NCBI GenBank assembly: GCA_023258955.1
Contig: JAHFRE010000003.1
Coordinates: 1,952 to 65,951 of the forward strand
Length of the DNA: 64,000 nt
Origin: Sterolibacterium sp.
Lineage (GTDB): Bacteria; Pseudomonadota; Gammaproteobacteria; Burkholderiales; Rhodocyclaceae
Reading direction: 5' to 3'
Shown here: piece by piece, positions 9,273 through 55,080 of the stretch
Numbering within the stretch: the first letter of the stretch is position 1
Layout: every line of letters begins with the position of its first letter
Program-made: the position numbers and the translations under genes
Notes under the pieces: model-generated
What the model was told of the DNA's origin: nothing
Databases searched by the model: none
Seen by the model: only the letters and a program-made list of their open reading frames with translations

Positions 9273-9598
9273 ATGCGCCGAAGCTGGGATTTGATCCACG
9301 CCTGATTAACCAGCGCACGAGACCGGCGGTTTCGACTTCAGCCATTGAGCGGCTATTGCTACGGCACGTCTTCGTCATTTGTCCGGAGTCGCGGCTGTGC
9401 GTAAACATCATTCGGCAGGTCTTCATCGATCTTTGCGGCCCTTCGCGCGAAGCCCGCCGTGATGCGCGCCGCTTCTTCTTGGACGGTCGCTTGGAGTACT
9501 GGTGCGACCTGGTGGACCTCAGTCCCGCCTTTGTGAGGGAAGTCGCCGTCAAGACAGGCTATCTCAACGTTTCCTCGCCAGGAGGCCAGCATGCTTGA
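9269..9598 (+). CDS. Hypothetical phage protein
   Basis: ATGA overlap with the nuclease stop; coupled to the primase gene. Confidence 0.5.
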   Translation: MNAPKLGFDPRLINQRTRPAVSTSAIERLLLRHVFVICPESRLCVNIIRQVFIDLCGPSREARRDARRFFLDGRLEYWCDLVDLSPAFVREVAVKTGYLNVSSPGGQHA

Positions 9599-11867
9599 CT
9601 ACAACGATTTGGCGACCGAGGCAGCAAACCCAAGCGACGGTGCGCGCGACGAAGTTCGCAGCGCCGTTCTCGCCAGGCTGGAGGATGTTCTGCGGCACAT
9701 GTTTCCCGCCGGGGAAGTGCGGCGGGGGCTGTTTCATATTGGGGATATTCTCGGTAGTCCCGGCCGAAGCCTCGAAGTCGTCCTTGAGGGAGACAAAGCC
9801 GGACTTTGGACTGACCGGGCAACGGGTGACGGCGGTGACGTCTTCGATCTTATCGCCCGCTACTACCGCCTCGATGTCAGGCGCGAGTTTGCGCAGGTCT
9901 TGGACAAGGCGCGTGGCCTAGCCGGGTGCCCGTCAACCACCCCTCTACGGAAGGCCAAGAAGGAAGTCTTGGTGGACGAACTGGGCCAGGCGACGGCCAA
10001 GTGGGACTATCTCGCCGCCGACGGTAGTCTCATCGGCTGCGTGTATCGCTATGACCCACCCGGCAGAAAGAAGGAGTTTCGGCCCTGGGATGCCAAGCGC
10101 CGCAAGATGGCGCCCCCGGATCCACGCCCGCTCTACAACCAGCCGGGGATGCTCACAGCTGACCTCGTCGTCCTGGTCGAGGGCGAGAAATGCGCGCAAG
10201 CGTTGATCGACGCGGGCATTGTGGCGACCACCGCCATGAATGGGGCCCACGCGCCGATCGATAAGACTGACTGGTCTCCGCTTGCGGCCAAGCACATCGT
10301 GATTTGGCCGGACCGCGACAGGGCAGGCTGGGAATACGCCATGGCCGCTGGTGCTGCAGCGCTCCAAGCCGGCAGCCAATCGTGCGTCGTCCTGATGCCA
10401 TCTGACGACAAGCCAGAGGGTTGGGACGTTGCCGATGCCTTGGCCGAGGGCTTCGATGTCACGGGGTTTCTGGCATCAGGGCCGCGCATGACGATCAAGC
10501 CGCCGGTGGAGGAAGAGCCGGACGTCCCCGGAGAGAAGGCTGTTTGGGCAACGGACGATGCATTGGCACTGTCCTTCACGCATCGCTATGCCGAGGACTG
10601 GCGCTACTGCGCCTCGTGGGGAAAGTGGCTGGTGTGGACGGGTAACCGTTGGCAGCCCGATGACACCTTGCTGGTCACCCATCTCATGCGTCACATCTGC
10701 CGCGAGGCTGCCATCAAGGCAGAGTCCCACCGGCTCGCCGCTAAGCTGTCAGCCAGCAGCACAGTCAGTGGCGTCGAACGTCTGGCGCGCACCGACCGCC
10801 AGCACGCATCCACCTCTGAGGAATGGGACAGCGACCCCTGGCTCGCCAATGCGCCTGGTGGTGTCATCGATCTTCGCACGGGGCAGGTGCGCCCGCACCG
10901 TCGCGCCGATCGCATGACCAAGATCACTACAGCGACGCCAAAAGGTTCCTGCCCGCGGTGGCTTGCATTCCTTGCCGACATTACTGCCGGTGACGCCGAC
11001 TTGATGGCCTACCTGCAACGGGTGATTGGCTACTGCCTCACCGGTGTGACCACCGAGCACGCCTTGTTCTTCCTCTATGGCACCGGCGCCAACGGCAAGT
11101 CGGTATTCGTCAACGTGATCACCACGATTCTGGGGGACTACGCTGCCAACGCGCCCATGGACACCTTTATGGAAACCCGCGGCGACCGGCACCCGACCGA
11201 TCTGGCTGGGCTGCGCGGCGCGCGCTTCGTGTCATCCGTCGAAACGGAGCAAGGGCGGCGCTGGAACGAATCCAAGGTGAAAGCCATCACCGGTGGCGAC
11301 AAAGTGTCAGCGCGCTTCATGCGCCAGGACTTCTTCGACTACCTGCCGCAGTTCAAGCTGGTCATCGCCGGAAACCACAAACCCTCCATTCGTAACGTGG
11401 ATGAAGCCATGAAGCGCCGGCTGCACCTGATTCCCTTCACGGTGACGGTGCCACCGGAAAAGCGCGACGGCAAGCTCACAGAAAAGCTGCTGAAGGAGCG
11501 GGACGGTATCTTGGCCTGGGCAGTCGACGGCTGCCGCCAGTGGCAGTTGCAGGGCCTGAAGCCGCCCAAGGTTGTGATCGATGCAACCGACGAATATTTC
11601 GAGGACCACGACGGCATCGGCGAGTTCATCGACGAAGAACTCAATGTCTCTTCCGCGGCGCGCGAGGCGATCTCGGCAACCTATCACCGCTGGAAGGAGC
11701 GATCAGAGCGCCTAGGTGAGTATGTCGGCACCAGCAACTGGCTGGTCGACCAATTGATCACCCGCGGGTTTGCAAGGACGCGGCTGCCCGGTGGCGCCAA
11801 GGCGCTCTCCGGCTTTTCCCTCAAGCCCCGGGAGCCGAGTGGCTATCAAGCGTACAGGGATGATTAA
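9591..11867 (+). CDS. Toprim primase fused to P4/D5-type replicative helicase
   Basis: Toprim motifs VVLVEGEKCA and WPDRDRAG. Walker A FLYGTGANGKS. Layout typical of phage/plasmid P4-family primases. Confidence 0.85.
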   Translation: MLDYNDLATEAANPSDGARDEVRSAVLARLEDVLRHMFPAGEVRRGLFHIGDILGSPGRSLEVVLEGDKAGLWTDRATGDGGDVFDLIARYYRLDVRREFAQVLDKARGLAGCPSTTPLRKAKKEVLVDELGQATAKWDYLAADGSLIGCVYRYDPPGRKKEFRPWDAKRRKMAPPDPRPLYNQPGMLTADLVVLVEGEKCAQALIDAGIVATTAMNGAHAPIDKTDWSPLAAKHIVIWPDRDRAGWEYAMAAGAAALQAGSQSCVVLMPSDDKPEGWDVADALAEGFDVTGFLASGPRMTIKPPVEEEPDVPGEKAVWATDDALALSFTHRYAEDWRYCASWGKWLVWTGNRWQPDDTLLVTHLMRHICREAAIKAESHRLAAKLSASSTVSGVERLARTDRQHASTSEEWDSDPWLANAPGGVIDLRTGQVRPHRRADRMTKITTATPKGSCPRWLAFLADITAGDADLMAYLQRVIGYCLTGVTTEHALFFLYGTGANGKSVFVNVITTILGDYAANAPMDTFMETRGDRHPTDLAGLRGARFVSSVETEQGRRWNESKVKAITGGDKVSARFMRQDFFDYLPQFKLVIAGNHKPSIRNVDEAMKRRLHLIPFTVTVPPEKRDGKLTEKLLKERDGILAWAVDGCRQWQLQGLKPPKVVIDATDEYFEDHDGIGEFIDEELNVSSAAREAISATYHRWKERSERLGEYVGTSNWLVDQLITRGFARTRLPGGAKALSGFSLKPREPSGYQAYRDD

Positions 11868-15402: not shown

Positions 15403-16677
15403 GTGAACCAGGATGCAAAGCAGCAGATCGAGTATGTGCCGGTCGAGGAACTCGTCCCCTACGTGCGGAACGCGAGGACCCACAGTGATGCGCAGGTCGC
15501 ACAGATCGCTGGGAGCATCCGGGAGTTTGGCTGGACAGCGCCGCTCTTGATCGATAGCGACAAAGGCATCTTGGCAGGGCATGGTAGGCTCGCCGCTGCG
15601 CGCAAGCTGGGGATGACGGAAGTCCCGTGCATCCGGCTCGACGGCATGACCGAGACGCAAAAGCGTGCGTACATCCTGGCCGACAACAAGCTGGCGATGA
15701 ATGCTGGCTGGGACGACGCGATGCTGGCCTGCGAATTGGCCGACTTGATTGCTGCCGGCTACGACGTCAATCTGACCGGCTTCACGGCGGAGGAACTGGC
15801 AGCGCTAACGGTCGATGAAGTGCCTGCGGGACTCACGGACGACGACGCTAGCCCGGAGCCGCCGCAGACACCGGTGACGGTCTTGGGCGACGTGTGGATC
15901 CTCGACAAGCACCGTTTGATGTGCGGGGACAGCACCAGCGTTGATGCGGTTAACGCACTGATGGATGGCGCCTTGGCGGACATGCTGATCACGGACCCCC
16001 CCTACAACGTGGCCTACGGCGGTGCCGGCGGCAACGCCGCAAACAAGAACAAGGTCGACGGGGGCAAGCGCAATACCCAGACGATACTGAACGACGACAT
16101 GTCGGACGACGCCTTCCGCCAATTTCTGCGGGACGCCTTGGTGACGGCAACCACGGTCTTGAAGCCCGGCGCCGTGTTCTACATCTGGCACAGCGACTCT
16201 GAAGGCTACAACTTCCGCGGCGCCTGCAGGGACGCTGGCTTGACCGTCCGCCAGTGCCTGATCTGGAAAAAGTCGCAGTTGGTCATGGGCCGGCAGGACT
16301 ACCAGTGGAAACACGAGCCCTGCCTTTATGGCTGGAAGGATGGGGCGGGGCACCTGTGGGCGGCCGATCGCAAGCAGACCACGATCCTCGAGTTCGACAA
16401 GCCGGGGACCAATGATGTCCATCCGACCATGAAGCCGGTGGCCCTGTTCGAATACCAGATGCTGAACAACACCAAAGGCGGGGATGTCGTCCTGGACCTC
16501 TTTGGCGGGAGCGGGACCACCGCCATCGCCGCTGAGAAGCACGGTCGACACGCCCGGCTGATGGAACTGGACCCGAAGTATTGCGACGTGATCGTCAAGC
16601 GGTGGCAGGAATGGACCGGAAAAAAAGCGACGCGAAGTGACGGAACCCCTTTTGACTCTTCGATTACGCTGCCATAA
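15403..16677 (+). CDS. ParB-like nuclease domain fused to beta-class DNA (N6-A or N4-C) methyltransferase
   Basis: N-terminal ParB box (YVRNARTHS..GILAGHGRLAAA). Motif IV DPPYN precedes motif I DLFGGSGTT, which is the beta-class order. Confidence 0.85.
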   Translation: MNQDAKQQIEYVPVEELVPYVRNARTHSDAQVAQIAGSIREFGWTAPLLIDSDKGILAGHGRLAAARKLGMTEVPCIRLDGMTETQKRAYILADNKLAMNAGWDDAMLACELADLIAAGYDVNLTGFTAEELAALTVDEVPAGLTDDDASPEPPQTPVTVLGDVWILDKHRLMCGDSTSVDAVNALMDGALADMLITDPPYNVAYGGAGGNAANKNKVDGGKRNTQTILNDDMSDDAFRQFLRDALVTATTVLKPGAVFYIWHSDSEGYNFRGACRDAGLTVRQCLIWKKSQLVMGRQDYQWKHEPCLYGWKDGAGHLWAADRKQTTILEFDKPGTNDVHPTMKPVALFEYQMLNNTKGGDVVLDLFGGSGTTAIAAEKHGRHARLMELDPKYCDVIVKRWQEWTGKKATRSDGTPFDSSITLP

Positions 16678-22733: not shown

Positions 22734-24077
22734 ATGAGTAAGAAACTCCGCGAGCTGCAAGCCCGCAAGTCGGCATTGGTATCGGACAAGGCCGAATCCC
22801 TGAAGCAAGCGAGCGTGCTGCTGGACGCCGCCGCCGCAGAAAACCGTGACCTGTCGACCGACGAGCAAGCTGCGTTCGACAAGTGCCGTCTCGAGGCCAG
22901 CGGCCGCACCAACGAAATCGAGCGCATTCAGGCCCAGATTGATGTCGAGCAAGAACTCATTGCCGCGCAAGCGCAGATCGGCGTGCAGGAGGCCATCGGC
23001 ATCATCATCACCGAGAACGTCGAGTCCGATCCCAAGCGGGGCTTCAAGTCCGTGGGCGAATTCATGCAGGCCGTCTATCGCGCCGAAAAGTTCGGTCAGA
23101 CCCCGGATCCACGTCTCCTGATCGGTGCCGCTGCGCCCTCAACCTACAGCAACGAAGGTGCTGGCCAAGATGGCGGCTTCTTCGTGCCGCCGGAGTTCTC
23201 GAAGGACATCTTCACACTCTCCCTGGGCGAAGACTCCTTGCTGCCGCTCACCGACGAAGTCGAGATCAACGGCAACAGCATGGCCTTCCCCAAGGATGAG
23301 ACCACGCCCTGGGGGACCAACGGCATCCGGGCCTTCTGGCAGGGAGAGGCGGCCACGGCCGTCTCCACCAAGCTCGCCCTGGGTCTTGCCACGCTTCGCC
23401 TCAAGAAACTCATGGCGCTGGTGCCCACAACCGATGAACTCCTCGAAGACGCCAATGCCCTGGCGAGCTACCTCCCGGGCAAGATCGCCGACTCGATCCG
23501 CTGGAAGACCAACGAGGCCATCCTCTTTGGTGCCGGCGCCGGCGTCCCCATCGGCTGCATCTCCAGTCCGGCAATCGTCACTGTCGCCAAGGAATCCGGC
23601 CAGTCCACGGCAACGCTCTTGCCGGCCAACCTCGCCAAGATGGTCTCGCGCCTGCCTGCCGGGTCCTACAACAAGGCGGTGTGGATCATCAACAACGATG
23701 TCCTGCCCGCGCTCTTTACCCTCACCCTTGGCAACTACCCGATCTACCTGCCCTGCGGGTGCATGACCGGTAGTGGCGGCGGCATCCAAGGCAATCCCTA
23801 CGGGATCCTGCTCGGTCGCCCGATCGTGGTCTCCCAGCATGCAGCAAGCTTCTCCAGCCAAGGCGACGTGATCCTGGCCGACCTCTCCTACTACCAGACC
23901 ATCACCAAGGCAGGTGGGATGCAGACAGCCACGTCCATGCACCTCTACTTCGACGCGGACCTCACGGCATTTCGCACCACCTTCCGCATGGACGGCCAAC
24001 CGAAGATCGTCGCCCCCATCAACCCGGCCAAGGGTAGCAGCACCCTCTCACCCTTCATCCAACTCGGCTCCCGCTAA
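22734..24077 (+). CDS. Major capsid protein, HK97 family, with N-terminal coiled-coil delta/scaffold region
   Basis: GGFFVPPEFSKDIF...FPKDETTPW...LVPTTDELLEDA matches the HK97 MCP pattern. The N-terminal ~100 aa are coiled-coil. Confidence 0.9.
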   Translation: MSKKLRELQARKSALVSDKAESLKQASVLLDAAAAENRDLSTDEQAAFDKCRLEASGRTNEIERIQAQIDVEQELIAAQAQIGVQEAIGIIITENVESDPKRGFKSVGEFMQAVYRAEKFGQTPDPRLLIGAAAPSTYSNEGAGQDGGFFVPPEFSKDIFTLSLGEDSLLPLTDEVEINGNSMAFPKDETTPWGTNGIRAFWQGEAATAVSTKLALGLATLRLKKLMALVPTTDELLEDANALASYLPGKIADSIRWKTNEAILFGAGAGVPIGCISSPAIVTVAKESGQSTATLLPANLAKMVSRLPAGSYNKAVWIINNDVLPALFTLTLGNYPIYLPCGCMTGSGGGIQGNPYGILLGRPIVVSQHAASFSSQGDVILADLSYYQTITKAGGMQTATSMHLYFDADLTAFRTTFRMDGQPKIVAPINPAKGSSTLSPFIQLGSR

Positions 24078-24663: not shown

Positions 24664-24894
24664 ATGACCAAGGCTTTGATGTACTCGCAGACCTGGTTCG
24701 ACTGCGATGCGGGCGGCACGAGCTTCGCCAAGTACCAGGCGGGCCAGACCTATCCGCTCCACGAGGATGCAGAGCGCCACGTCGCACTTGGCATCGCCGA
24801 GGTCATTGATGTTCGCGCGGCCGAGAAACCTGCCGCGGAAAAGGCCGACCGCGCGCAGGGCAAAGCCGCTGCCGAGTCGACTGCTACCCCCTAG
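24664..24894 (+). CDS. Hypothetical small virion-module protein
   Basis: ATG at 24664 with GGAG upstream. Confidence 0.5.
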   Translation: MTKALMYSQTWFDCDAGGTSFAKYQAGQTYPLHEDAERHVALGIAEVIDVRAAEKPAAEKADRAQGKAAAESTATP

Positions 24895-24904
24895 GAGAAA
24901 CCAG

Positions 24905-25489
24905 ATGCAGACTCATAATGGAATCGCCGCCGGCAACGCGGCGACCGACAGCGCTATTGCCTCGCAGAGCAGCGTTGTCGAGAAGGCCGGCGTCATCGGC
25001 GTCTACAGCGTTCAGTGCGTTGGCCCCGACGGCCAGGTGAAGTGGGAAGACACCGCCGACAACATCGTTACCAACGTTGGCAAGAACCTGGCGTTGGACA
25101 CCTTCCTCGCCGGCTCCGCCTATACCGCCGCCGTCTATATGGGCTTGGCCAATGGCTCAGCCTCAAGCTGCACGGTGACGGACACAATGGCCAGCAAGAC
25201 GACGTGGCTGGAAGTGGGTGCTACCAATGCGCCAACCTACACCAGTCCGCGCAAGACCCCGAGCTGGTCGAGTGCCTCAGCAGGATCCAAAGCCACAAGC
25301 GCCGCTGTCTCGTTTGCAATCACCTCGAGCGGCACGGTCGGCGGGTGCTTCCTGGTCTTTGGCTCAGGCGCGGTGACGACCATTGATAACACGTCGGGCG
25401 TCCTGTATTCCTGCGGCGCCTTTACCGGTGGCAGCAAGACGGTCTCCAATGGGGACACATTGAACGTCACGTACACCGCTAGCATGTAG
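24905..25489 (+). CDS. Hypothetical beta-rich virion-module protein
   Basis: ATG at 24905. Gly/Ser/Thr/Ala-rich beta-type composition. No family recognised. Confidence 0.6.
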   Translation: MQTHNGIAAGNAATDSAIASQSSVVEKAGVIGVYSVQCVGPDGQVKWEDTADNIVTNVGKNLALDTFLAGSAYTAAVYMGLANGSASSCTVTDTMASKTTWLEVGATNAPTYTSPRKTPSWSSASAGSKATSAAVSFAITSSGTVGGCFLVFGSGAVTTIDNTSGVLYSCGAFTGGSKTVSNGDTLNVTYTASM

Positions 25490-25502: not shown

Positions 25503-25796
25503 ATGGCCTCAAAATTCCCCAAAGGCACGATCGTCCATCAGGTCGTGCAGGTGCTCTCCGGCAAGGTACAGTCCTTCTCTGTCGATCAGGAGTCCGGCGA
25601 CGTGCAGTATTGCGTCGAGTGGGTCGATCCGGAGGGCAATATCCACAGCCGCTACTTCGTTGAATCGGAGCTTGCAGCGGATTCGACCGTTGAGACCGTT
25701 GGCGCGCCGGTGGACGCTGAAGTTGCTGCGGCGGCGGCCGCCACTGCAGCTGCAGCCGCTACCGCTCACGCTGCTGCGTCCGCGCAGAGCACATAA
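25503..25796 (+). CDS. Hypothetical protein with poly-Ala C-terminus
   Basis: GAGGAG RBS; AAAAATAAAAATAHAAA tail. Confidence 0.55.
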   Translation: MASKFPKGTIVHQVVQVLSGKVQSFSVDQESGDVQYCVEWVDPEGNIHSRYFVESELAADSTVETVGAPVDAEVAAAAAATAAAAATAHAAASAQST

Positions 25797-25799: not shown

Positions 25800-26132
25800 A
25801 TGGGCGCCCAAGGCACAGCGACGCTCAACTTCGGAAGTTTTCCAGGCTCTCAAGAGGCGAGCGTCGCTGTCATCGGTCAGACAGGCATCACGGCCGGTTC
25901 GCTGGTTGATGTCTGGGTTCTGCCCGCCGATGGTACAGACCACTCGGCCGATGAGATGCGCGTTGACCCTATTCGGGTCACCGTCGGAAACATTGTGGCC
26001 GGTGTCGGTTTCACCATCTATGGCTATCCCGGCGACGTCCAAGTGTTCGGTACAAAGACCGCCTATGGTGGCCTGCCTGACCAACAGGCAGACACCTATG
26101 GTGCCTACAACATCGCATGGGTATGGAACTGA
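25800..26132 (+). CDS. Hypothetical virion-module protein
   Basis: Starts 3 nt after the upstream stop; consistent codon bias. Confidence 0.55.
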   Translation: MGAQGTATLNFGSFPGSQEASVAVIGQTGITAGSLVDVWVLPADGTDHSADEMRVDPIRVTVGNIVAGVGFTIYGYPGDVQVFGTKTAYGGLPDQQADTYGAYNIAWVWN

Positions 26133-26306: not shown

Positions 26307-26942
26307 GTGGCGATTCAGATCATTGGCAATGGCGGTACGGTTGCGGAAGTCGACGGCACCACGTGGCGCGCGCTGCGGGTCACCGACCGCCCGACCGAGT
26401 TTGGCGCCGGGGGTTATTACAGAACAGCGATCTCCCAGCTGACCGCTGCCGCCCCTGCAGCGGGCGCCAACCTCGCATCCCTGCGTTGGACCTCCGGGTC
26501 GCTCCTCATGCTGATCCGTTACCTGCAGATCACAATCAACGTCAGCACGGCGTCTACCGCAGGTTTGCCGCAGTTCGCGGGCTATGTCGCTCGTGCTTAC
26601 ACTGTGACAGACACGGGCGGCACGGCGGCCACGCTCTCGGGCAACAGTTTCAAGAAGCGCACCAGTCACGGGGGCACGTCGTTGGGCGATCTGCGCTACA
26701 CCGCAGCTGCCACACTGACAGCCGGTACGCGCACCCTGGACGCTGCGCCATTCATCACGACGACGACGAATATCGCGCTGGGTTCAACCAGCACAGCGAT
26801 CCTCGACATCGACGGCCCCGGCGATCACCCGATCGTGCTGGCCCAGAACGAAGGCCTTGTCTTCCAGAATGTCACCGCTGTGACCGCCGGTGTCTATCAA
26901 TATACGATCAATATGGCGTGGGCCGAAGTGCCGGCGTACTAA
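26307..26942 (+). CDS. Hypothetical beta-rich virion-module protein
   Basis: GTG at 26307 with AGGAG 8 nt upstream. No family recognised. Confidence 0.55.
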   Translation: MAIQIIGNGGTVAEVDGTTWRALRVTDRPTEFGAGGYYRTAISQLTAAAPAAGANLASLRWTSGSLLMLIRYLQITINVSTASTAGLPQFAGYVARAYTVTDTGGTAATLSGNSFKKRTSHGGTSLGDLRYTAAATLTAGTRTLDAAPFITTTTNIALGSTSTAILDIDGPGDHPIVLAQNEGLVFQNVTAVTAGVYQYTINMAWAEVPAY

Positions 26943-26945: not shown

Positions 26946-29900
26946 ATGGGGCTCCTTCTTGCGCGTGAGGGAGGGCTATCGAGCGCGAACATCCATTTCA
27001 TCGGCAGCGTCGAGTCAACCAATGCTTACGATGCGTTAACCGCAAGTGGCGCCTACGGCGTCGCCGCCACAGAAGCCGTCTATCCGGCAGTCGGCCAGCT
27101 AAATATCTACGCCGCCATGGTGGCGGCAAGCGGAGGCTACGTTGCGAGTAGCGGTCCGTACGGGCAGTCGCAGACCTTCCTAGCGAACGTCACCGGGCAG
27201 ATTCAGTCAATCGCTCTGCGCGGCTATCGAGACACCTCAGCCGCCGGTGTGCCGGCGCAACTTGGGCGCATTGCCCTGTTCTCGCTGACGGCCAATTCAG
27301 TGGCGGGGCTTCCGCAGACTCAGCTTGCCGCCATCACCTTCAACCTGATGACGCTCAGCACAACGCCGGGGCTGATCACCTTTGACTTTAGCCAGGTATC
27401 CGGTGCAACGGTGACGGCAGGCACATGGTACGCAGCGGTCTGGTGTCATGGCAGCGATTGGGGGAGTAACAACAGCAATCAGACGATGGGGTATTTCGAT
27501 GCCTCTGGCAACGTTTCTCCGAGCATTTCCACCAGCGGTTACACCGCGGCTGCGTCCTATCCGACCGGATGGGCCGCTGACACCTGGTCATACGACATCG
27601 AGGTTGTGGTTACCGGGTCGACGCCAGGTGCGGTAGATGCCGAGGCTGGAACGTTCTCAACGACTGTTGCTATGACCGAATCAGCGACAGCGGCCGATAG
27701 TCCGGTGGGCAGTTTTTTGGATGGCGTATTCAGCTTTGAGTTAAGCACGAATCCAACGTGGGATGGCAAAACCGTACTCCACAATCATCTGTCTACGTCA
27801 TCCGGCACGGTGTCCAATGACTCCGTGGCGATAGGTTGTCCCGGATCATTTGCCTATTCGGCAACACAGACGCTATTTGGACTTCAGAATAGCGCGTGGC
27901 AAAAATACACCGGCGGCTCGTGGAGTTTCGGAAATATCGGAATTTACACGGGCGCCCAATCGTTACTTCCGCAGACGTCATTGCCCATCTGGACGGTTGA
28001 GCTTTGGTATTTCCGAAACGCCGTCCAACCCACGGCTGGCGGCAATGATGCGTTCTATATCTACTGGGCTGGGTATGTCCCGCAGTACATTCGTTTCGAC
28101 GGGCTGAATGTGACTGTCAGGTTGGGCGCTAGCGCCCTGACGGTTACCGCGCCCGCGATTTCGATCAATGGTTGGCATCACATCGCGGTGCAAAATGACG
28201 GCACGACCATCATATTTTTCTTGGACGGTGTGCCGACGGTTGTGTCTTCCACGGATGGTAGTTTGAATCCCTTTGCTCTGAATACGTTTGATGTCTTTGG
28301 ACAGGACAACGATACCGGGGTCATCCATAACACCTACACCCAAGAGTTTCGCCTTTCAAACTGCGCAATCTACTCAAACAGCGGATTCACACCACCGACA
28401 GCCGCATTTGCTGATCCGATTTTATCGACGGATGTCACAGCCTCACCCATCACTGCGGCGATACCGGAAGCGGCGACGGCCACTGACAGCTTGCCCAAGC
28501 CCACAGGAATTACGGGCGTGGTGCAGACCGAGGCCACCGGCGGCACGCTCGAGGCCTCCGACGCATTCAACGGTGGGTACCAGGAAGAACACCTGACGCT
28601 GGTTGATAGCGTAACCAGTTTGGCAACAGCGAATGGCGCTCAGATGGAGCCGCTGGGCGACCCGGCAATCGCCCTGTACTGCAATTTTGAGGGCGGCGTG
28701 TGGGACCTGGCCGGGAACGGTTCTCAGGCCCTCGCCGGAGCGGCGACGATCCAGAACAGCATCGTAAAGTTTGGCAGCTACGCGCTTTCCTTCGGGAGCG
28801 CCGGCAATGCCTATCAATATACGCCGCTCGCGAACCACACAGAGACGATCCCTGTTTGGACGTATGAATGTTGGTATTACCCGGCCACCACATCGAGCTA
28901 CTGGTTCTACTTCTTCTATCCGGGTAATGGCATTGGTGGCTTTAACCTCGTATCCGCGACCAGTACCTATGGCACGGGGCTGTTCGTCGGGGTGGGGGTC
29001 GGCAGCTTCGCTCTGAATAATGCGGCGTGGAATCACCTCTGCTTGCAGTTCGACGGAACGACGCTCTGTTTTTTCGTGAACGGAACCGCGGTTACCCTGA
29101 CAAATAATACAGGTGCCGGCAAGTTCGCACTCAACCTGACACCTTGTGTGAATTGGGCTTGGTACACGGGGCCGTCTGGCAACGCCGCCTATCTTGATGA
29201 AGTCATTCTGACCCGCGCGGCCAAGTACAGCAACAGCGGGTTTACACCGCCAACGACGCCGTTGAGCTACTACGCCGCCAGTGACACGATGGCAGCACCG
29301 GTGCAAGGAGGCCTCACCGAAGCGGCGACGGGTGCCGATGTGGTTGCCACTCCGAATACTTCCTGGAACCCAACGCAGACCGAGGCGGCTGCTGCGGCAG
29401 ACCCGCAGGGTGCCATGGGTGGAGCCGAAAATCAGCTTGAAGCCGTAATGGGCGCTGACGCTGTTGCTGTGCTATCAACCTATGGCGTGGTGGATAGCGA
29501 ATCGATATCGCTGAGCGATGTTTCTGTCGGCGGCGTTCCTTTCGCAGTAACCGATACCGAAGCAACGACTGGGAGCGACAACGGGGCGGTGACCGCTTCC
29601 TCGCCGCATTGGATTCTCGAGCGCGGAACGCCGGACGCGAATACTTACCTCTTGTACCACTGTGCTGATGGTTCGAGTGCTTGCGGTGGTCCGGCCTTTT
29701 CTGGAACTTTCGGAAGCACTCATACGACACTGGGGTTTGCGACAAGCCTGACGCTGCCGGGATACGGGTTGATATATTTCCCTGTAACGCAAACGCTGCC
29801 AGCACCCGCCAATTTAGGGAAGATTTGGACGATAGAATTTTGGGTGTACACGACAGTCACTTTTAACGCGATTGTGATGGAGACGTCTACTGGGGCATCC

Positions 29901-32900
29901 GCGATGCTTCAGGTAACGTCCGGCGCGTCAAGTAGTATTTATACCGGCAGTTCGGGTAGCTATTTCACGGCCCCAGCGATTTCGACGAATGCTTGGCACC
30001 ATATTGCAGTCCAGTGCGATGGAACAAGCGCCTACTTCTTCTTAGACGGTTCTCCTACGTTGGTCGGGACGAATGTCGCGGCCCATGACTACGATTTGTC
30101 CGGTAGCGCTAGTGTATTTGGGTTGGTCAACGCGGACGGGATGAACACGATCTACGTCCAAGAGTTTCGCGTCTCGACTATTGCTCGCTACGCCAATAGC
30201 GGATTTACATCGCCCACAGTTCCATTCACTGTTGTGGGGGCGGCAGATGCGGGCGACGGCAAGCTGCCGACGTCCTGCTACCTCCCCGAGACGATGTCCA
30301 ACAATGCCCTTGCGTCGTCGTTGGCGTATGGCAATGGCGCGCCCTATGTCAAATACCTCGACAGCGCTTCGACCATCTATGGCTACGGGGTGACTTTCAT
30401 CGCCTCTGTTACGGCGCACCTTGGCCCGGTCACTGCTTACGTCTACAAGAACAATCATTCCAATCCACCGGCACAGCCGGGTACAGTTGAACTTTGGCAG
30501 TTGGCGAGCAATTCGATTTCGGCGATGCCAAGTACCAAATTGGCGTCGTTGACGTTCACCCAGGCATCCGCTCCAACATCCGGACTGTTTTGCGTAGATT
30601 TCACTGCGGTAAGTGGGGCGAATGTGACTGCTGGGGTCGGCTATGCGGTGGTCTTCTATCGCGGGTCAGATTGGACAGGGACCAACGATCAGTTTGCGTT
30701 GCTTGCCCAGTATTGGGGCATGCCGTCGCCAATGGCAGTGATCTGGAATCAGAATGGCGTAGCGTGGTACGCGGAAAGCAACTACTCGCCGGGAATACTT
30801 GTTGAATACGTGACGCCGCAAGATGCCGCCAACGGCATTGGTGGTTTGACGCTTGTCTCCATTACAGAGGCCTTGGCAGGCGTTGATGCGTCTGACTATA
30901 ACGCGGGAATGAACGCGAATGAGGCGGCGGCTTGTTCTGACAGCGCCTCGACGATAGTGACTTTCTATGGGGATCAGTCAAATTCCGTACATGGCCCGGT
31001 CCAACACGATTACACGCAGCTTATTTCCCGCGTTGGTTCATCTGACTACTGGATCGGTGGTGATGGTAGGTCGGGCCACACGTTCCAAGCAACTGCGTCA
31101 GGACAACTGGGTGCCGTGTTGTTTTGCATGCGTCAGGGATGGGGCCTTGTAACCCCAACCGCGACAGGAAGCATCGAGCTTTGGGTAACGGCCGGTGGCG
31201 GGCCAAGTGGCATTCCAACGACACAGATCGCATCCGTTCCTCTTCCTTGGTCGAGTCTAACAACGACTGACACATGGTATTCGTTCGACTTCACCATGGT
31301 TGGTGGCGCCGTGTTGTCGAGTGGGACTTGGTATTACATCTGCATTCACACTGGCTCCGATTGGGATGGTGCCAATAATCACCTTGTTGCCGTTCTGTGC
31401 AATACGGGCGGCATCGCTTCTTCTGCGACTACCGAGTACGGCGGCACGACCACTGCAACGGACGGTGGAAGTTGGAGCACCTACGGCAACGATTGGATGA
31501 TGATCGTCCAGATGGCCGGTAATGCTGACACGCTCATGGGTAATTGGGTAACAACCGTGTGGGGCGCTGAGGCTGCGACCGGGACTGACAGCCCTGCGGG
31601 CGGCTACACGGTGGCGATGCCAGAGGCGGCAACAAGCACAGATGGGCTGATATCAACCGCAATCGTCCCTATGGTTGGCTTAGAGCCTGCTACAGGTGCT
31701 GACGTACCAGTGGGTGCATTCGTTTCTCCGCAGGCAATAGCCGAAATAGGAACCGGAACCGACGTAAAGGACTCAACCTGTGTTACAGGCGCAACGGAAA
31801 TCGAATCCGCAGCGGGATCGGATGTGCCAGCGGCGACGGCGATCCTTGTCGGTACTGAATCTGAGGCTGCAAGTTCGGTTGATTCTCCTGTTTCTGTATT
31901 CGCGTTTGGCGTTGCTGACACAGAAACTGCAGCTGGTGGAGACGCACCCGTGGTGTCGGCGAGTTTTGCCAGCACACTCAGCGAATCGGGGGCGCTTGCA
32001 GATACAACAGACGGAGTAGGGCCAGAGAGTGCGACGATTACTGAACCGACTACAGCTGCTGATGCGAGCTCCACATCCGGTGTGCAGCCTGCCTCGATCC
32101 CCGAGGGTGCGACAGCCGCAGACGCCCCTGTTTCAACCTTCGTCACAAGCGCTGTGGAATCGGAGGCGGCAACCGGTGCTGACGCACCTGTTGGTGCAAA
32201 TGCTACTGCGGCAGCGGGATTGGAAGCCACAAGTGGTACGGATTTACCTATTGGCCAGAATGTCACGTCCTCTGCGGGAACAGAAGCGGCAAGTGCGTCG
32301 GACGCTGCAACTGGTGGGAATGTTGCCGTTGCGTCGATAGCAGAAAGCGCAACTGCTGCTGACGTTTTGGCTGCTGCTGCGCTATTTGTCGGTGCGCGAG
32401 CTGAGGCTGCATCTTCTGCCGAAGCGATTATTGCCGCAGCCGCGTTCGTGAGTGCCATGAGCGAGACGGTGAGTGGAGCAGATGCCGAAACTGTCACCGC
32501 TCTGCTGGTCAGTGCGATCACCGAAGCTGTAGCTGCTGGCGACGCCACGGACGGGGTCGGGCCGCAGGGCGTTACAGTCAGCGAGGTCGCTGCCGGATCT
32601 GATATACAGGTCGCGGCGGCTGGATTTATTGCGGCGGCGACCGCAGCCATGGCTGCCTTGGACGCAGCCGATGCCGCCAATGCGGGGGGCAATGCACCCC
32701 AATCTGAGATGGCCACAGCAATGGACGCCCCGGCTGCATTGGCGCTCTTTGTTGCGGCGCTGACGGAGGCGGCAACAGGAGCAGACGTCCCAACGGCAAC
32801 CGCCGTGTTCGTAGCAGACACCGCCGGCGCGGCGACGGCGACCGAGCTTGCAGGAGTAGCAGCAGCGTTCGTCGGCGCCGCTGTCGAAAATGCCTCAGGG

Positions 32901-33950
32901 GTGGATACGGTGTCCGCATTCTGGGTTGCCTATGCCTCGCTCACGGAGGCGAGTACCGTTGCCGATGCGATTGCCCTGATGGGCCTATTCGTGGGCGCGG
33001 TGGCAGAAGCTTCTATCGGTGCCGACATTGAGGGAGCCTGGACCGGTGTCACGCGGGCGATGGCGGAAGCCCTCACGGGAATTGATACAGGCTCCGCCAC
33101 GATGGCTGGCGCCGGCCAACAGTTGGAAGTGGGTGTCTCGAGCGATTTGCCGGCTGGCGTTGGCACCGTGCCCGTGCTGGAGACGGAGTCGGTGGCTGGC
33201 ACCGATGGCACTGCGGCCGTGTTTGCCTCGCCGCAAGCAATCGAAGAGGTGAGCGTGGCTAGCGATGGCAAGGCGGGGCAACTGGCAGCAGTGGGTGCGA
33301 GCAACGAATTGGCACTTGCTGCCGATGTCGGAGCCAGCACGATGGCCGCTGTTGCTTCTACCGGCGAACTGACTTCTGCTGTTGATGGTTCGGCGGGCGC
33401 CGTTGCCTTCACCCTCGTGATGGCGGAGTCGGCACTGGCAGGTGACGGTGGAACTGCGACGTTCTCCGCAGTGGCGGCAGCGCTTGAAGCGATTGCTGGC
33501 GTTGACTGGCCTGCGGCGGCGTTGAGCGCTGCAGCAGATTTGGTCGTCAGCGTGACCGCAGCGGATTGGTTGGGTGCCGCGACCGTGGCGAACGCCGAGG
33601 CGGCTGAAGCGGTTGTGGCTCTTGAGGAGACCGGCGGCGAGGCTGGCCAATGGGTGGGGATTTACGAGGTCGTGTCGGCGACTGAGTCCGGGATAGTGGA
33701 ACTGGCGCGCTTGGCATTCGGCCTGGAGGACGTCAGCACCACAGACTTGGTCCTGGCGAACGTGAATTTTCATGTTGGCACGGTCGAGTACGTCGTGGCA
33801 GTCGATCTCTGGACCGGCGTTCTGTGGGTCTTTGACCACCGCTTCGTCGTCTCCGGCGCCGGTCGATCGTTCTCAGTTCAGCGTGGCGGCATTTCGCCGG
33901 TCGCGATGGGGCCAAGGCATTTTGAGGTGACGGAGGCCGGCACGACATGA
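26946..33950 (+). CDS. Giant (2334 aa) multi-domain virion-module protein: 3 LamG/concanavalin-like domains, 3 copies of a second ~150-aa domain, long 20-residue-periodic repeat region
   Basis: Uninterrupted 7005-nt ORF. Three copies of W(T)xExW.Y...W(H/N)H(I/L)..Q.DGT...FF(L/V)(D/N)G...(Y/F)...(F/V)....A.Y(S/A)NSGFT.PT at about aa 285-490, 575-775 and 890-1095. Three copies of a QxF.A...G.....(I/V)(A/E)L....(P).....(L/I)A......GA.(V/L)..G..Y......G(S)DW domain at about aa 60-215, 1140-1290 and 1375-1525. Confidence 0.85.
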   Translation: MGLLLAREGGLSSANIHFIGSVESTNAYDALTASGAYGVAATEAVYPAVGQLNIYAAMVAASGGYVASSGPYGQSQTFLANVTGQIQSIALRGYRDTSAAGVPAQLGRIALFSLTANSVAGLPQTQLAAITFNLMTLSTTPGLITFDFSQVSGATVTAGTWYAAVWCHGSDWGSNNSNQTMGYFDASGNVSPSISTSGYTAAASYPTGWAADTWSYDIEVVVTGSTPGAVDAEAGTFSTTVAMTESATAADSPVGSFLDGVFSFELSTNPTWDGKTVLHNHLSTSSGTVSNDSVAIGCPGSFAYSATQTLFGLQNSAWQKYTGGSWSFGNIGIYTGAQSLLPQTSLPIWTVELWYFRNAVQPTAGGNDAFYIYWAGYVPQYIRFDGLNVTVRLGASALTVTAPAISINGWHHIAVQNDGTTIIFFLDGVPTVVSSTDGSLNPFALNTFDVFGQDNDTGVIHNTYTQEFRLSNCAIYSNSGFTPPTAAFADPILSTDVTASPITAAIPEAATATDSLPKPTGITGVVQTEATGGTLEASDAFNGGYQEEHLTLVDSVTSLATANGAQMEPLGDPAIALYCNFEGGVWDLAGNGSQALAGAATIQNSIVKFGSYALSFGSAGNAYQYTPLANHTETIPVWTYECWYYPATTSSYWFYFFYPGNGIGGFNLVSATSTYGTGLFVGVGVGSFALNNAAWNHLCLQFDGTTLCFFVNGTAVTLTNNTGAGKFALNLTPCVNWAWYTGPSGNAAYLDEVILTRAAKYSNSGFTPPTTPLSYYAASDTMAAPVQGGLTEAATGADVVATPNTSWNPTQTEAAAAADPQGAMGGAENQLEAVMGADAVAVLSTYGVVDSESISLSDVSVGGVPFAVTDTEATTGSDNGAVTASSPHWILERGTPDANTYLLYHCADGSSACGGPAFSGTFGSTHTTLGFATSLTLPGYGLIYFPVTQTLPAPANLGKIWTIEFWVYTTVTFNAIVMETSTGASAMLQVTSGASSSIYTGSSGSYFTAPAISTNAWHHIAVQCDGTSAYFFLDGSPTLVGTNVAAHDYDLSGSASVFGLVNADGMNTIYVQEFRVSTIARYANSGFTSPTVPFTVVGAADAGDGKLPTSCYLPETMSNNALASSLAYGNGAPYVKYLDSASTIYGYGVTFIASVTAHLGPVTAYVYKNNHSNPPAQPGTVELWQLASNSISAMPSTKLASLTFTQASAPTSGLFCVDFTAVSGANVTAGVGYAVVFYRGSDWTGTNDQFALLAQYWGMPSPMAVIWNQNGVAWYAESNYSPGILVEYVTPQDAANGIGGLTLVSITEALAGVDASDYNAGMNANEAAACSDSASTIVTFYGDQSNSVHGPVQHDYTQLISRVGSSDYWIGGDGRSGHTFQATASGQLGAVLFCMRQGWGLVTPTATGSIELWVTAGGGPSGIPTTQIASVPLPWSSLTTTDTWYSFDFTMVGGAVLSSGTWYYICIHTGSDWDGANNHLVAVLCNTGGIASSATTEYGGTTTATDGGSWSTYGNDWMMIVQMAGNADTLMGNWVTTVWGAEAATGTDSPAGGYTVAMPEAATSTDGLISTAIVPMVGLEPATGADVPVGAFVSPQAIAEIGTGTDVKDSTCVTGATEIESAAGSDVPAATAILVGTESEAASSVDSPVSVFAFGVADTETAAGGDAPVVSASFASTLSESGALADTTDGVGPESATITEPTTAADASSTSGVQPASIPEGATAADAPVSTFVTSAVESEAATGADAPVGANATAAAGLEATSGTDLPIGQNVTSSAGTEAASASDAATGGNVAVASIAESATAADVLAAAALFVGARAEAASSAEAIIAAAAFVSAMSETVSGADAETVTALLVSAITEAVAAGDATDGVGPQGVTVSEVAAGSDIQVAAAGFIAAATAAMAALDAADAANAGGNAPQSEMATAMDAPAALALFVAALTEAATGADVPTATAVFVADTAGAATATELAGVAAAFVGAAVENASGVDTVSAFWVAYASLTEASTVADAIALMGLFVGAVAEASIGADIEGAWTGVTRAMAEALTGIDTGSATMAGAGQQLEVGVSSDLPAGVGTVPVLETESVAGTDGTAAVFASPQAIEEVSVASDGKAGQLAAVGASNELALAADVGASTMAAVASTGELTSAVDGSAGAVAFTLVMAESALAGDGGTATFSAVAAALEAIAGVDWPAAALSAAADLVVSVTAADWLGAATVANAEAAEAVVALEETGGEAGQWVGIYEVVSATESGIVELARLAFGLEDVSTTDLVLANVNFHVGTVEYVVAVDLWTGVLWVFDHRFVVSGAGRSFSVQRGGISPVAMGPRHFEVTEAGTT
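31569..33845 (+). repeat. About 38 consecutive degenerate 60-nt (20-aa) coding repeats, consensus E-x5-D-x13
   Basis: Glu falls at residues 1560, 1580, ... 1880, then 1921, 1941 ... 2281, with Asp (rarely Glu) six residues later. There is only one 1-residue indel. The DNA copies are diverged. Confidence 0.85.
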
Positions 33951-33987: not shown

Positions 33988-34305
33988 ATGACCGCGCGCC
34001 TGGATACTAAGGACCCCGAAGAAGCGCTCACCCTGACCTTCGACTTCTCGGTGGGACTTGGCGCGGACGATCTTCTGACGGGCACGCCGACCGTGACAGT
34101 CGCCGTCCTGATTGGGCGGGATCCTGGTCCAGCCGGCCTCTTGAATGGCTCGCCGGCGATCGATGGCACATCGACGCGCGTCTATCTGCCGGTTCAGGCG
34201 GGCAACGAGGGTTGCGATTATCTGATCAAAGTGGTTTGTGCGACAACGAACCCATCCAAGGTCCTGGCGCTCTCCGCCGTGCTGCCGGTCCGTTCCTTGA
34301 ACTGA
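33988..34305 (+). CDS. Small beta-sandwich-like virion protein (pattern reminiscent of phage fibre/tail adaptor-type proteins)
   Basis: LDTKDPEEALTLTFDFS..L..DDLLTG.PTVTV...G...YLIKV pattern. Assignment is from memory only. Confidence 0.45.
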   Translation: MTARLDTKDPEEALTLTFDFSVGLGADDLLTGTPTVTVAVLIGRDPGPAGLLNGSPAIDGTSTRVYLPVQAGNEGCDYLIKVVCATTNPSKVLALSAVLPVRSLN

Positions 34306-35216: not shown

Positions 35217-35570
35217 ATGGCTGTCGTCTTCAAGTCTGGCGACCTTCGCCACAGGGTCGATATCCAGCTGCCAGTGGTTGCAACCGGCGAGATCGGGGGT
35301 GGGATCAAGACCTGGCAGACGGTTGCGAGCGTGGCGGCATCCATCACACCGACGTCCGGATCAGAACGCATGGCCGCGGCGGCGATTCAGTCGTCGGTCA
35401 GCCACACCATCATGATCCGCTGGAAGGCGATCTTTTCGGATCCGAAGGTGGTGGCGACGATGCGCGTCGTCTTCGGCACTCGGATCTTCAACATTCACGA
35501 TAGCGAGAACGTGGAAGAGCGCAATCGCATCATCGTGTTATCGGCCTCGGAGGGGATGAATGATGGCTGA
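35217..35570 (+). CDS. Head closure / head-tail adaptor protein
   Basis: LRHRVDIQ.....GE.GG..KTWQTVASV.ASI.P.SG.E matches the head-tail adaptor pattern. Confidence 0.75.
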   Translation: MAVVFKSGDLRHRVDIQLPVVATGEIGGGIKTWQTVASVAASITPTSGSERMAAAAIQSSVSHTIMIRWKAIFSDPKVVATMRVVFGTRIFNIHDSENVEERNRIIVLSASEGMNDG

Positions 35571-36039
35571 GGCAAGCGTGGAGGGCCTGTCTGATCTGTG
35601 GGCGGCCATGCAGGACGTGCCGGTCAAGATCGAGACCAATATCCTGCGCGGGGGACTGCGCGCGATGGCTATTCCGATCCAGCAGGAAGCGAAGAGCCTG
35701 GTGCACAGCGTGTCGGGCGACCTGGCGAAGTCAATTCGGATTGCGACCGGTTCGAGAAATGGGACGGTGTACGCCAAGGTGATCGCCGGCAAGAACAACA
35801 AGCCGGGCGATCCCTTTTACGCGCACATGGTCGAGTTTGGCACCGCGGCGCATTGGATCAAGCCCAGATACACCAAGTCGCTCGCCTTCGGCGGCGTGAT
35901 GCGCGATGCCGTGCGCCACCCAGGCGCGCAGAAGAAGCCGTTCATGCGCCCGGCCATGGATGGGCGGGCCCAGGAGGGATTGGAAGCCATGGCGGATTAC
36001 ATGGCGGACCGGCTGCCCAAAGAACTCGCCAAGCTGTGA
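35560..36039 (+). CDS. HK97 gp10-like tail-completion protein
   Basis: Pattern, size and position resemble HK97 gp10. Confidence 0.65.
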   Translation: MMAEASVEGLSDLWAAMQDVPVKIETNILRGGLRAMAIPIQQEAKSLVHSVSGDLAKSIRIATGSRNGTVYAKVIAGKNNKPGDPFYAHMVEFGTAAHWIKPRYTKSLAFGGVMRDAVRHPGAQKKPFMRPAMDGRAQEGLEAMADYMADRLPKELAKL

Positions 36040-51790: not shown

Positions 51791-52042
51791 ATGCCCCAAG
51801 TCGTAACGCTGGCCCTCTCAATCCTGTCGTTCCTCGTCAGCAACAAGGCGCAGATCGTGCAGGTCATCACGGAAATTGAACTCTTGATTCCGGATGCGCC
51901 CGGTGCCACCAAGGCGGCAGCGGTCAAGTCGTTCATCGCTACATCGCTCGGAGTCGAGGCGCAGGTCGAGCAGGCATGGCCGCTGGTGGGGCCGCTATTC
52001 AATGCCCTTGTGGCACTGGTGAAGTCGCCAAAGGCGGCGTGA
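51791..52042 (+). CDS. Small N-terminal-TM protein (possibly LL-H-type holin-like); last gene of the prophage
   Basis: N-terminal hydrophobic helix. Its C-terminal 54 codons are repeated at 56187..56348. Confidence 0.5.
   Translation: MPQVVTLALSILSFLVSNKAQIVQVITEIELLIPDAPGATKAAAVKSFIATSLGVEAQVEQAWPLVGPLFNALVALVKSPKAA
51881..52042 (+). repeat. Copy 1 of the diverged 162-nt repeat (3' end of the holin-like gene)
   Basis: LLIPDAPGATKAAAVKSFIATSLGVEAQVEQAWPLVGPLFNALVALVKSPKAA versus LLIHDAPGATKAEAAKTFIASSLGIEAQVEQAWPLVGPLFNALVALVKEPKTA. Confidence 0.9.
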
Positions 52043-52109
52043 TAGGTCTTATCGGGCATCCTGCCGCGCCCAGGTGCAATGCTTGGGCGGTGGCGGGGTG
52101 CCCCAATGG

Positions 52110-52697: not shown

Positions 52698-52777
52698 GGC
52701 GGTCTACCAAAGAGACTCTGCGATAACTAGCTATCGGCGCTATCCTGAGAAACTAAAGGACGCAGGCAGTATTTGTG

Positions 52778-55050: not shown

Positions 55051-55080
55051 GGTGAGGATGGTGATTATCTCTTGCTGCGA

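Follow-up and report, generated by a model that had tools for sequence, protein, structure and literature searches.

Results

The giant open reading frame and its place in the prophage

The stretch of DNA analyzed here, in the following called the window, comprises 64,000 nucleotides of contig JAHFRE010000003.1 from Sterolibacterium sp., and within a block of phage head genes it contains a single open reading frame (ORF) of 2334 amino acids (aa), here called the giant ORF. The structural genes are arranged in the order small terminase, ParB-methyltransferase, large terminase, portal, S49 protease and HK97-fold capsid protein (22734-24077), followed by six small ORFs, the giant ORF, an ORF of 105 aa, and the genes for the head-tail adaptor, head closure and an HK97 gp10-like protein, and then by those for tail completion, tube, chaperones and an 1862-aa tape measure. 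Judged from this gene order the locus is a siphophage-type prophage module. Between the capsid gene and the giant gene there are 2.9 kb, and the latter is on the same strand as its tightly packed structural neighbors, with a gap of only 4 nt between the stop codon of the upstream gene and its own start. It begins with ATG and is translated without interruption over 7,005 nt. A first-pass annotation of the window had described a single uninterrupted ORF between the capsid and connector genes, and both the ORF listing and the gene context bear this out.

The giant ORF consists of an N-terminal peptide, one copy of a domain that we call X, three LamG domains, two more copies of X, approximately 37 tandem repeats of 20 residues and a C-terminal tail (Table 1). 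The three X copies share pairwise identities of 24-41%, with expect values (E) down to 2e-22 in a self-comparison, and the Pfam model PF13385 (Laminin_G_3) matches three stretches (E 6e-15, 56.1 bits compared with a cutoff of 27.6), all confined to aa 286-1103. Pfam and PHROG scans of the giant ORF revealed no match to immunoglobulin (Ig), decoration, capsid-binding, fibritin, BppU-like or coiled-coil models, and the N-terminus, as judged by eye, resembles neither a signal peptide nor an anchor. It is clear from the self-comparison, the Pfam matches and the autocorrelation described below that the order of one X, three LamG domains, two X and about 760 aa of 20-residue repeats was correctly read in the first-pass annotation. 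Collectively, the data support that the giant ORF encodes a modular, internally repeated protein within the virion structural operon.

When the giant ORF was compared with cultured phages by tblastn, similarity was limited to LamG domain 3, which is 30% identical to hypothetical proteins of Salmonella phages, and a megablast search with the head genes of the window found no relative among cultured phages. The combination of domains, which the first-pass annotation did not recognize from any characterized phage, was accordingly found in no member of the cultured-phage collection searched.

The repeat array and the conserved C-terminal half

A BLOSUM autocorrelation of aa 1541-2280 peaks only at lags of 20, 40, 60 and 80 residues (z = 16.2 relative to shuffled sequences), and the approximately 37 units, when stacked, fall into register and give the consensus E-A-A-t-G-a-D-x-P-x-x-x-x-x-F-V-x-A-x-x, interrupted by a single register shift near aa 1900-1920. 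The 20-residue period does not represent a heptad pattern. The E-x-x-T-x-x-D part of the repeat is also present as single copies at aa ~243, ~790 and ~1306, where it corresponds to the E-A-A-T-G-x-D linkers that had been proposed to separate the globular domains. No sequence match to the repeats, or to a second giant of the same family (P0009), was found among solved structures.

It had been pointed out in the first-pass annotation that the ORF might be an assembly artefact of collapsed repeats. Tandem Repeats Finder detected no tandem repeat at the DNA level in the giant ORF, which shows that the repeat copies are old and diverged and makes such an artefact unlikely. Together with the identical repeat count in the independently assembled homologue described below, this led us to reject the artefact.

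The sole close relative among 5.8 billion clustered proteins is P0002, a protein of 1921 aa with 62% identity over 51% of the query. It originates from an independent assembly, in which its gene has the same position between the capsid and connector genes of a syntenic phage locus, and its layout is N-terminal peptide, LamG, X, X, X, X, repeats and tail. Thus the globular halves of the two proteins are reshuffled (X-L-L-L-X-X in the giant ORF versus L-X-X-X-X in P0002), and over their C-terminal 808 aa they can be aligned gaplessly, with 75% identity and the same number of repeats, the last 88 aa being 96-98% identical. The gapless alignment and the near identity of the last 88 aa identify the C-terminus as the conserved end of the protein. 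From the two sequences, this is the pattern to be expected of a conserved anchor and a variable distal end, and the domain shuffling likely marks the globular half as a determinant of host range or niche.

Domain X and the family of X-domain giants

The X copies had no sequence match in Pfam, NCBIfam or PDB, the Pfam and NCBIfam searches being extended to E-values of 1-10, and the family models DUF4082 and choice-of-anchor R did not match any X copy of the giant ORF. An AlphaFold2 model of X, based on an alignment of 33 sequences, shows a beta-sandwich core with a predicted local distance difference test score (pLDDT) of ~90. Foldseek matched this model to a phi812 baseplate protein (E 1.4e-4), to the carbohydrate-binding modules (CBMs) CBM16 and CBM11 and to SUN domains, and further to many phage minor tail proteins, including those of mycobacteriophages, or collagen-repeat fibre proteins. 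The resemblance of the predicted structure to CBMs and phage receptor-binding proteins is supported by these matches, and the modelled domain is best read as a binding-type jelly roll. Weak relatives of X are present in small bacterial PEP-CTERM surface proteins, which themselves have sub-threshold matches to choice-of-anchor R and DUF4082.

A profile search with X among 1.84 billion representative proteins gave 13 strong matches (E < 1e-30, the query and P0002 included), all of which are 1,200-2,600 aa long and contain 2-7 copies of X. Six of the X-domain giants were scanned and produced zero Pfam or PHROG matches, and the family defined by X and the 20-residue repeat is without a Pfam or PHROG model and absent from the cultured-phage collection searched. 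In nearly every member the motif I-T-E-S/T-x-T-A-T-D recurs between the X copies with 20 residues as its commonest spacing, and this motif is the low-GC counterpart of the Ala-rich repeat in the giant ORF. In the relatives single X domains are spaced by 3-8 such repeats only.

The strong family members are all found within phage structural modules. P0005 (2594 aa) is encoded in a T4-like contig directly upstream of gp13, gp14 and gp15, and a 3001-aa X-domain giant in another T4-like contig (L059) has the same N-terminal type as P0005. Among solved structures no relatives were found for the proteins whose genes precede the giant one in the T4-like contig. P0003, P0013 and P0016 are located in contigs of SU10/GP4-like podophages near SU10-adaptor genes, with Gp80 genes near P0013 and P0016 and a Gp77 gene as well in the contig of P0016.

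Five of the giants (P0003, P0007, P0008, P0010 and P0012) share an N-terminal domain of ~230 aa starting with MAIQYVGGNT, the first ~200 aa of which are ~42% identical to a hypothetical protein of the Microcystis phages Mae-JY04 and Mae-JY28, and a tblastn search with P0008 against cultured phages matched only this N-terminal domain, in Microcystis phages. The same five proteins also share C-terminal W-x-x-I-N-D-x-Q repeats. This shows that the family uses several different end modules, and some X-domain giants may be anchored by the N-terminus. Another two X-domain proteins, P0014 (2182 aa) and P0018 (1564 aa), have in common a long N-terminal region rich in repeats of the type S/T-x-D-G-G-x-T-W, which look similar to BNR/sialidase propellers and suggest that X combines with glycosidase-like modules too.

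The Gp77-like gene and its cassette

The 105-aa protein encoded directly after the giant ORF matches the Pfam family PF23148 (Gp77, "podophage GP4 fiber-tail adaptor") with 28.3 bits, the cutoff being 27 (E 2.6e-6), and 11 of its 27 homologues have a precomputed match to the same family. An hhalign comparison of its profile with gp77 of GP4 gave an E-value of 3.2e-4 with the conserved motifs in register, and its sole sequence match in PDB is a weak one to the GP4 chain 8jou_D (E 0.5). AlphaFold2 predicts an Ig-like sandwich (pLDDT 92.7), for which the top Foldseek matches are of the Ig type. Membership of the Gp77 family is therefore marginal but consistent. No match to the 105-aa protein was found in cultured phages by tblastn, and the canonical connector set of the prophage (282-aa adaptor, head closure, gp10-like and gp17-like proteins) is complete without it.

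The surroundings of such genes were analyzed in five homologues on long contigs (L020-L024) of three morphotypes, which comprise one SU10-like podophage, two lambda-like siphophages, one siphophage with a Mu-like head and one HK97-like siphophage. In all five contigs a larger, variable ORF (157-855 aa) immediately precedes the Gp77-like gene and in most cases overlaps it. The position of this cassette varies, the site being portal/protease, portal/capsid, portal/Mu F or decoration protein/FII. The upstream ORFs had no precomputed Pfam match, and a later scan revealed LamG in one of them (L024_351). Repeats of 20 residues are present in L023_525 (z 14.5) and L024_351 (z 10.1), and L021_417 has a repeat of 22-26 residues. 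At their C-termini the upstream proteins carry a common motif, D-P-x-[FY]-[IV]-[IV] followed by one or two copies of R-[ST]-F-x-[VI], of which L022_855 has the R-[ST]-F-x-[VI] element only. The end of the giant ORF, FDHRFVV..GRSFSV..PRHFEV, conforms to this motif, and a motif related to the tail of the giant ORF ends the protein L015_315 and occurs in a 325-aa protein of GP4 (see Discussion).

In L022 the gene directly after the Gp77-like one (10282-11778) encodes a fusion of the Mu F minor head protein with ADP-ribosyltransferase toxin domains, which match Pfam ART and ADPrib_exo_Tox.

Small genes upstream of the giant ORF

In L016 and L019, genes shortly before the X-domain giant encode proteins that are 48% identical to the 194-aa protein. 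A member of this protein's family is also located upstream of the giant in L059, and the P0002 locus has a 194-aa gene in the same position, matched by size and place only. An hhalign comparison with the Gp80 family (GP4 fibre I; PF23140) gave an E-value of 4.1e-5 and a probability of 70% over 116 columns, almost the full length of the Gp80 profile. Among solved structures the 194-aa family has a single relative, chain U of the PDB entries 26la and 44nx ("Structural protein", 171 aa), which the 194-aa profile matches with an E-value of 4.3e-10. The aligned part of 26la chain U is identical to the 171-aa ORF007 of the Pseudomonas podophage KPP25 (L060 8953-9468), which belongs to a block of neck and tail genes, and in the KPP25 neighborhood of ORF007 there was no Gp77 or Gp80 match and no strong 20-residue periodicity.

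The next gene, encoding a 97-aa protein, has BLASTP matches to 57-58-aa genes between the 194-aa-family gene and the giant in L019 (E 5e-7) and L016 (E 2e-5). Pairs with 40-50% identity to the adjacent 110-aa and 211-aa ORFs are present in 14 IMG/VR viral contigs, where the pair occupies varied places in the head module, for example between portal and capsid, and is followed by a gene for a protein of ~280 aa and not by a giant. The 211-aa gene was considered as a fused or dedicated partner of the giant and rejected, since it has no similarity to the MAIQYVGG domains and since it pairs with the 110-aa gene in these 14 giant-free contigs.

Other features of the prophage

The probable head-to-tail adaptor is 31% identical to the protein encoded just before the head-closure gene in L024. 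Further downstream, the length of the tape measure implies a very long non-contractile tail. The prophage also has a conventional tail-tip fibre or spike of its own, which makes the giant ORF an additional and not the primary surface protein. At 52000-60600 the GC content drops from ~0.62 to 0.52-0.56, after which two MFS transporter genes appear, and this region is likely the right-hand end of the prophage. The best genome matches of the flanking MFS transporter are alphaproteobacterial and at most 43% identical, the closest being in a Roseiarcus metagenome-assembled genome, and a genome scan with the 211-aa protein gave no match. No tRNA genes were found in the window.

Table 1 Features of the giant ORF and of the surrounding prophage, with positions in the window.
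Feature	Position	Strand	Remarks
Giant ORF, 2334 aa	26946..33950	+	ORF listing and translation; proposed accessory neck-fibre adhesin ("rope-adhesin")
N-terminal peptide, aa 1-24, MGLLLAREGGLSSANIHFIG...	26946..27017	+	Kept in P0002 (first 40 residues compared) though the following domains are shuffled
Domain X copy 1, aa 33-229	27042..27632	+	Predicted beta-sandwich; self-BLAST, hidden Markov model (HMM), AlphaFold2, Foldseek
LamG (concanavalin-A-like) domain 1, aa 286-530	27801..28535	+	Pfam PF13385, internal HMM
LamG domain 2, aa 576-814	28671..29387	+	Pfam PF13385, self-comparison, HMM
LamG domain 3, aa 905-1103	29658..30254	+	Best Pfam stretch aa 951-1048; HMM
Domain X copy 2, aa 1100-1291	30243..30818	+	Self-BLAST, HMM
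Domain X copy 3, aa 1341-1526	30966..31523	+	Self-BLAST, HMM
~37 tandem 20-residue repeats, aa 1541-2280	31566..33785	+	Autocorrelation, stacking; proposed shaft or "rope"
C-terminal tail, aa 2281-2334, FDHRFVV...GRSFSV...PRHFEV	33786..33950	+	Proposed docking element for the Ig-like collar protein
105-aa Gp77-like Ig-fold protein	33988..34305	+	Pfam PF23148; proposed fibre-to-neck adaptor (collar)
194-aa protein, candidate whisker subunit	24905..25489	+	Listed ORF 24707-25489; internal ATG start probable
97-aa protein	25503..25796	+	Travels with the 194-aa and giant genes
110-aa and 211-aa ORF pair	25800-26132, 26307-26942	+	No Pfam or PHROG match
Probable head-to-tail adaptor, 282 aa	34365..35213	+	PHROG 442, E 8e-6; presumed collar platform
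Head closure	35217-35570		Canonical connector set
HK97 gp10-like protein	35560-36039		Canonical connector set
Tape measure, 1862 aa	38505-44093	+	Unusually long
Conventional tail-tip fibre/spike, 988 aa	45566-48532	+	C-terminal Peptidase_S74 intramolecular chaperone, E 1.4e-15
Mrr-type restriction endonuclease domain protein	2761-3948	-	Early region of the element
D5_N/DUF5906 primase-helicase	9591-11867	+	Early region of the element
ParB-like nuclease fused to DNA methyltransferase	15403-16677	+	PHROG 498, E 4e-172; between the small- and large-terminase genes
MFS transporter	57178-58620	-	Past the GC drop
MFS transporter	59180-60544	+	Past the GC drop

Discussion

A proposed neck-anchored adhesin

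Above we established the domain architecture of the giant ORF, its homologies and its gene linkages. From comparative genomics we infer the presence of the protein in the virion, its position at the neck, its orientation, its oligomeric state and its ligand as follows. With about even confidence we propose that the giant ORF encodes an accessory virion adhesin that is docked by its C-terminus to a Gp77-type neck ring, with the repeats as a shaft and the LamG and X domains as the distal, glycan-binding end. According to this proposal the 105-aa Ig-like protein would form a ring around the head-to-tail adaptor, as in phage GP4 and, in a fused form, in Bas63 and Sf14, and the giant protein would dock on the ring via its conserved tail (DHRFVV...RSFSV...RHFEV). 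The 37 repeats would constitute a long shaft, at the distal end of which the N-terminal X-LamG-LamG-LamG-X-X part would bind host surface glycans weakly and multivalently and thereby hold the particle near the cell until the tail-tip fibre engages its receptor. In a less certain sub-model the repeats would form an extended "rope", where each 20-residue unit is threaded through one 194-aa Gp80-like subunit in a beads-on-a-string arrangement.

Neck anchoring is favored because of the Gp77-type gene downstream, the shared C-terminal motif, the conserved C-terminus and the slot at gp13-15 in the T4-like contigs. The structural operon, the binding-type domains and the Gp77 neighbor together point to a virion adhesin at the neck, and the separate tail-tip fibre makes an accessory role in reversible adsorption reasonable. 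The first-pass annotation had proposed a lectin-bearing fibre on the capsid for reversible adsorption, and of this the fibre and its role are retained, in agreement with the LamG and X domains and the separate tail-tip fibre, whereas the capsid site is not.

Comparison with known neck and head fibres

The structure of GP4 (Zheng et al. 2023, J Mol Biol 435:168258; PDB 8JOU) is considered here as it is described in PMC11445570 and PMC12609058. There gp77 is a 93-aa Ig-like protein, 15 copies of which are placed round the dodecameric head-to-tail adaptor and attach three fibre sets (PMC11445570), and the rope is a protein of its own, which interlocks with the collar and on which five dimers of fibre I are mounted (PMC12609058). 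The GP4 genome has a gene for a Gly/Ala-rich protein of 325 aa, located between gp80 and the genes for a 568-aa protein and gp77, and this protein shows a 20- and 10-residue periodicity (z 6.4) and the motif ERQLFV..SRTLVV. The prophage resembles GP4 in having a gp77-family gene right after the fibre gene and a candidate remote gp80 relative nearby, these genes being next to the head-to-tail adaptor genes, and in having a 20-residue-periodic chain with a related C-terminal motif. It differs in being of the siphophage type, and its putative rope comprises 760 aa compared with part of a 325-aa protein. Furthermore, in the window the repeats are fused to lectin- and CBM-like domains of ~1,500 aa in total, which are absent from GP4, and the 568-aa protein encoded directly upstream of gp77 does not have the C-terminal motif.

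In the myophage Bas63 an Ig-like collar, homologous to that of GP4, is located at the interface between the adaptor and the head-completion protein, and dimers of whiskers sit "like beads on a string" on a rope (PMC12609058). The whisker genes gp30 and gp31 of Sf14 adjoin the portal gene, which is a precedent for whisker genes in a head module (PMC11821841). In the model proposed here our locus would share with these phages, by description, an Ig-like collar on the connector, whisker dimers on an extended rope and whisker genes in the head module. In contrast to the giant ORF, the rope of Bas63 belongs to the collar protein itself, as a short extension of its N-terminus, and carries two dimers and no distal binding domains (PMC12609058).

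A functional counterpart may be found in the neck passage structure (NPS) of lactococcal 936 and P335 siphophages, where binding of the CBMs to host cells was shown to be weak and is assumed to be compensated by multivalency (PMC6669499). Like the NPS, the proposed giant fibre would be a non-essential siphophage neck fibre ending in carbohydrate-binding modules (PMC6669499). The NPS protein is however only 500-900 aa long and has a BppU-like collar anchor at the N-terminus and a CBM at the C-terminus, joined by a trimeric coiled coil (PMC6669499), and in the giant ORF this order is reversed, with N-terminal binding domains and a conserved C-terminal end.

Comparison can also be made with phage T4. 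Its whisker gene wac is located just upstream of gp13-15, and the product, fibritin (487 aa), forms a trimeric coiled coil that includes a foldon and is devoid of binding domains. The X giants in T4-like contigs occupy the slot upstream of gp13-15, and both proteins would be attached to the neck, but no sequence relationship between fibritin and the giant ORF was found. T4 Hoc and T5 pb10 are likewise accessory surface proteins from the head module with a proposed role in weak adhesion. They are, however, small Ig-domain proteins at the hexamer centers, and the giant ORF is without such domains.

Points against neck anchoring and the rope

A number of observations weigh against the proposed neck-anchored adhesin. 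The Gp77 assignment barely exceeds the Pfam threshold, and the GP4 chain is not among the top 50 Foldseek matches of the 105-aa model, which are generic Ig domains with E-values of ~1e-2. The giants in L016, L017, L019 and L059 are without a Gp77-like gene in the stretches examined, and that of L015 is 8 kb away. The C-terminal motif is short and degenerate, and although the window, L023, L024 and GP4 have repeats of one and the same period, no clear common consensus unites these. The orientation is challenged by the N-terminal 24 aa, which are also conserved between the giant ORF and P0002, and in most fibres the N-terminus is the anchor. As for the rope, the 325-aa protein of GP4 is a candidate for the GP4 rope that we suspect from its sequence. 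The link between the 194-aa protein and Gp80 is weak (a probability of 70% from very shallow alignments, with no Gp80 match by Pfam), and the sub-model requires the very large number of ~37 whisker subunits per chain.

Alternative placements of the giant protein

We consider possible but rather doubtful an alternative in which the protein is a self-assembled, probably trimeric, neck or side fibre with repeats that fold on themselves in the style of a triple beta-spiral or beta-helix. The 194-aa protein would then serve as a chaperone or as some unrelated structural protein. Fibrous phage shafts typically have such a strict short period in which small and hydrophobic positions are conserved, the Gp80 link is weak as just mentioned, and the 3-8 repeats between single X domains in the relatives could be mere spacers. 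On the other hand, the sequence has no similarity to any solved fibre, the period of 20 residues is also found in the GP4 protein encoded between gp80 and gp77, and the 194-aa family recurs beside the giants.

Less probable still is the placement suggested in the first-pass annotation, a capsid-anchored fibre or filament that projects the lectin domains from hexamers or vertices in the manner of Hoc, the phi29 head fibres or the phiCbK head filament. The giant gene is situated inside the head block 2.9 kb after the capsid gene, several of the uncharacterized small genes in between could encode capsid adaptors, and binding-type domains would fit such a fibre. However, neither a capsid-binding nor an Ig-like decoration domain was detected in the giant ORF, and its conserved partner is of the Gp77 type, which in GP4 is bound to the head-to-tail adaptor (PMC11445570). 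The Gp77 cassette and the X giants are moreover found at varied positions, beside adaptor or neck genes in podophages and T4-like phages. Synteny, proposed as a check in the first-pass annotation, gave a divided answer, in that P0002 keeps the position between the capsid and connector genes, whereas more distant relatives and the cassette are found elsewhere in head and neck modules. Capsid anchoring thus gained no specific support, and the comparative evidence points to the neck.

The side fibre that was the alternative in the first-pass annotation, attached to the tail tube or baseplate and encoded by a merely displaced gene, is very unlikely. Fibre genes of phages can be displaced and tail proteins often contain LamG and CBM-like domains, but the distal tail genes and the S74-chaperone fibre are located 10 kb downstream, and the giant is linked to a neck-type adaptor gene and not to baseplate genes. 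Finally, a non-virion moron, that is, a lysogenic-conversion or host-surface protein in the late operon, could be imagined from the distant X relatives in PEP-CTERM surface proteins, but is hardly credible for a protein whose N-terminus, by eye, is unlike a signal peptide or anchor, whose gene shows coupling to the structural genes before and after it and whose strong family members all belong to phage structural modules.

Implications for collar-whisker systems

Ig-like collars with whiskers on a threaded rope were first seen by electron cryo-microscopy in 2023-2025, in one podophage and two myophages. As a principle, collar, rope and whisker have already been described in GP4, Bas63 and Sf14, and LamG domains are widespread. 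What is new in the neck-anchored adhesin proposed here is the siphophage-type context and the combination of a very long 20-residue-repeat module with six binding domains in one chain of 2,334 residues, as well as the recognition of two unnamed groupings, the X-domain giants and the cassette of variable protein, C-terminal motif and Gp77-like gene. The most far-reaching extension, to which we attach only a tentative and rather low degree of belief, is that the 20-residue repeat is a general "rope" code, which would specify beads-on-a-string fibres of ~37 subunits with six lectin- or CBM-like domains at the tips, and that the 1,200-3,000-aa X giants of podo-, myo- and siphophages would be variants of one system with GP4, Bas63 and Sf14 as its minimal form.

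The data suggest that the collar-whisker system is present also in siphophage-type prophages, that the variable protein and the Gp77-like gene form a mobile cassette which enters head modules at several points, and that the system can be expanded into a lectin adhesin of 2,334 residues. If this is true, pre-adsorption mediated by glycans would be a testable function for the collar-whisker system, and the 20-residue period together with a C-terminal D-P-x-F/Y...R-S/T-F-x-V next to a gene for a ~100-aa Ig-like protein would be a signature by which it can be recognized in genomes. It would also provide a role for a family of giant metagenomic phage proteins that falls outside the Pfam and PHROG models.

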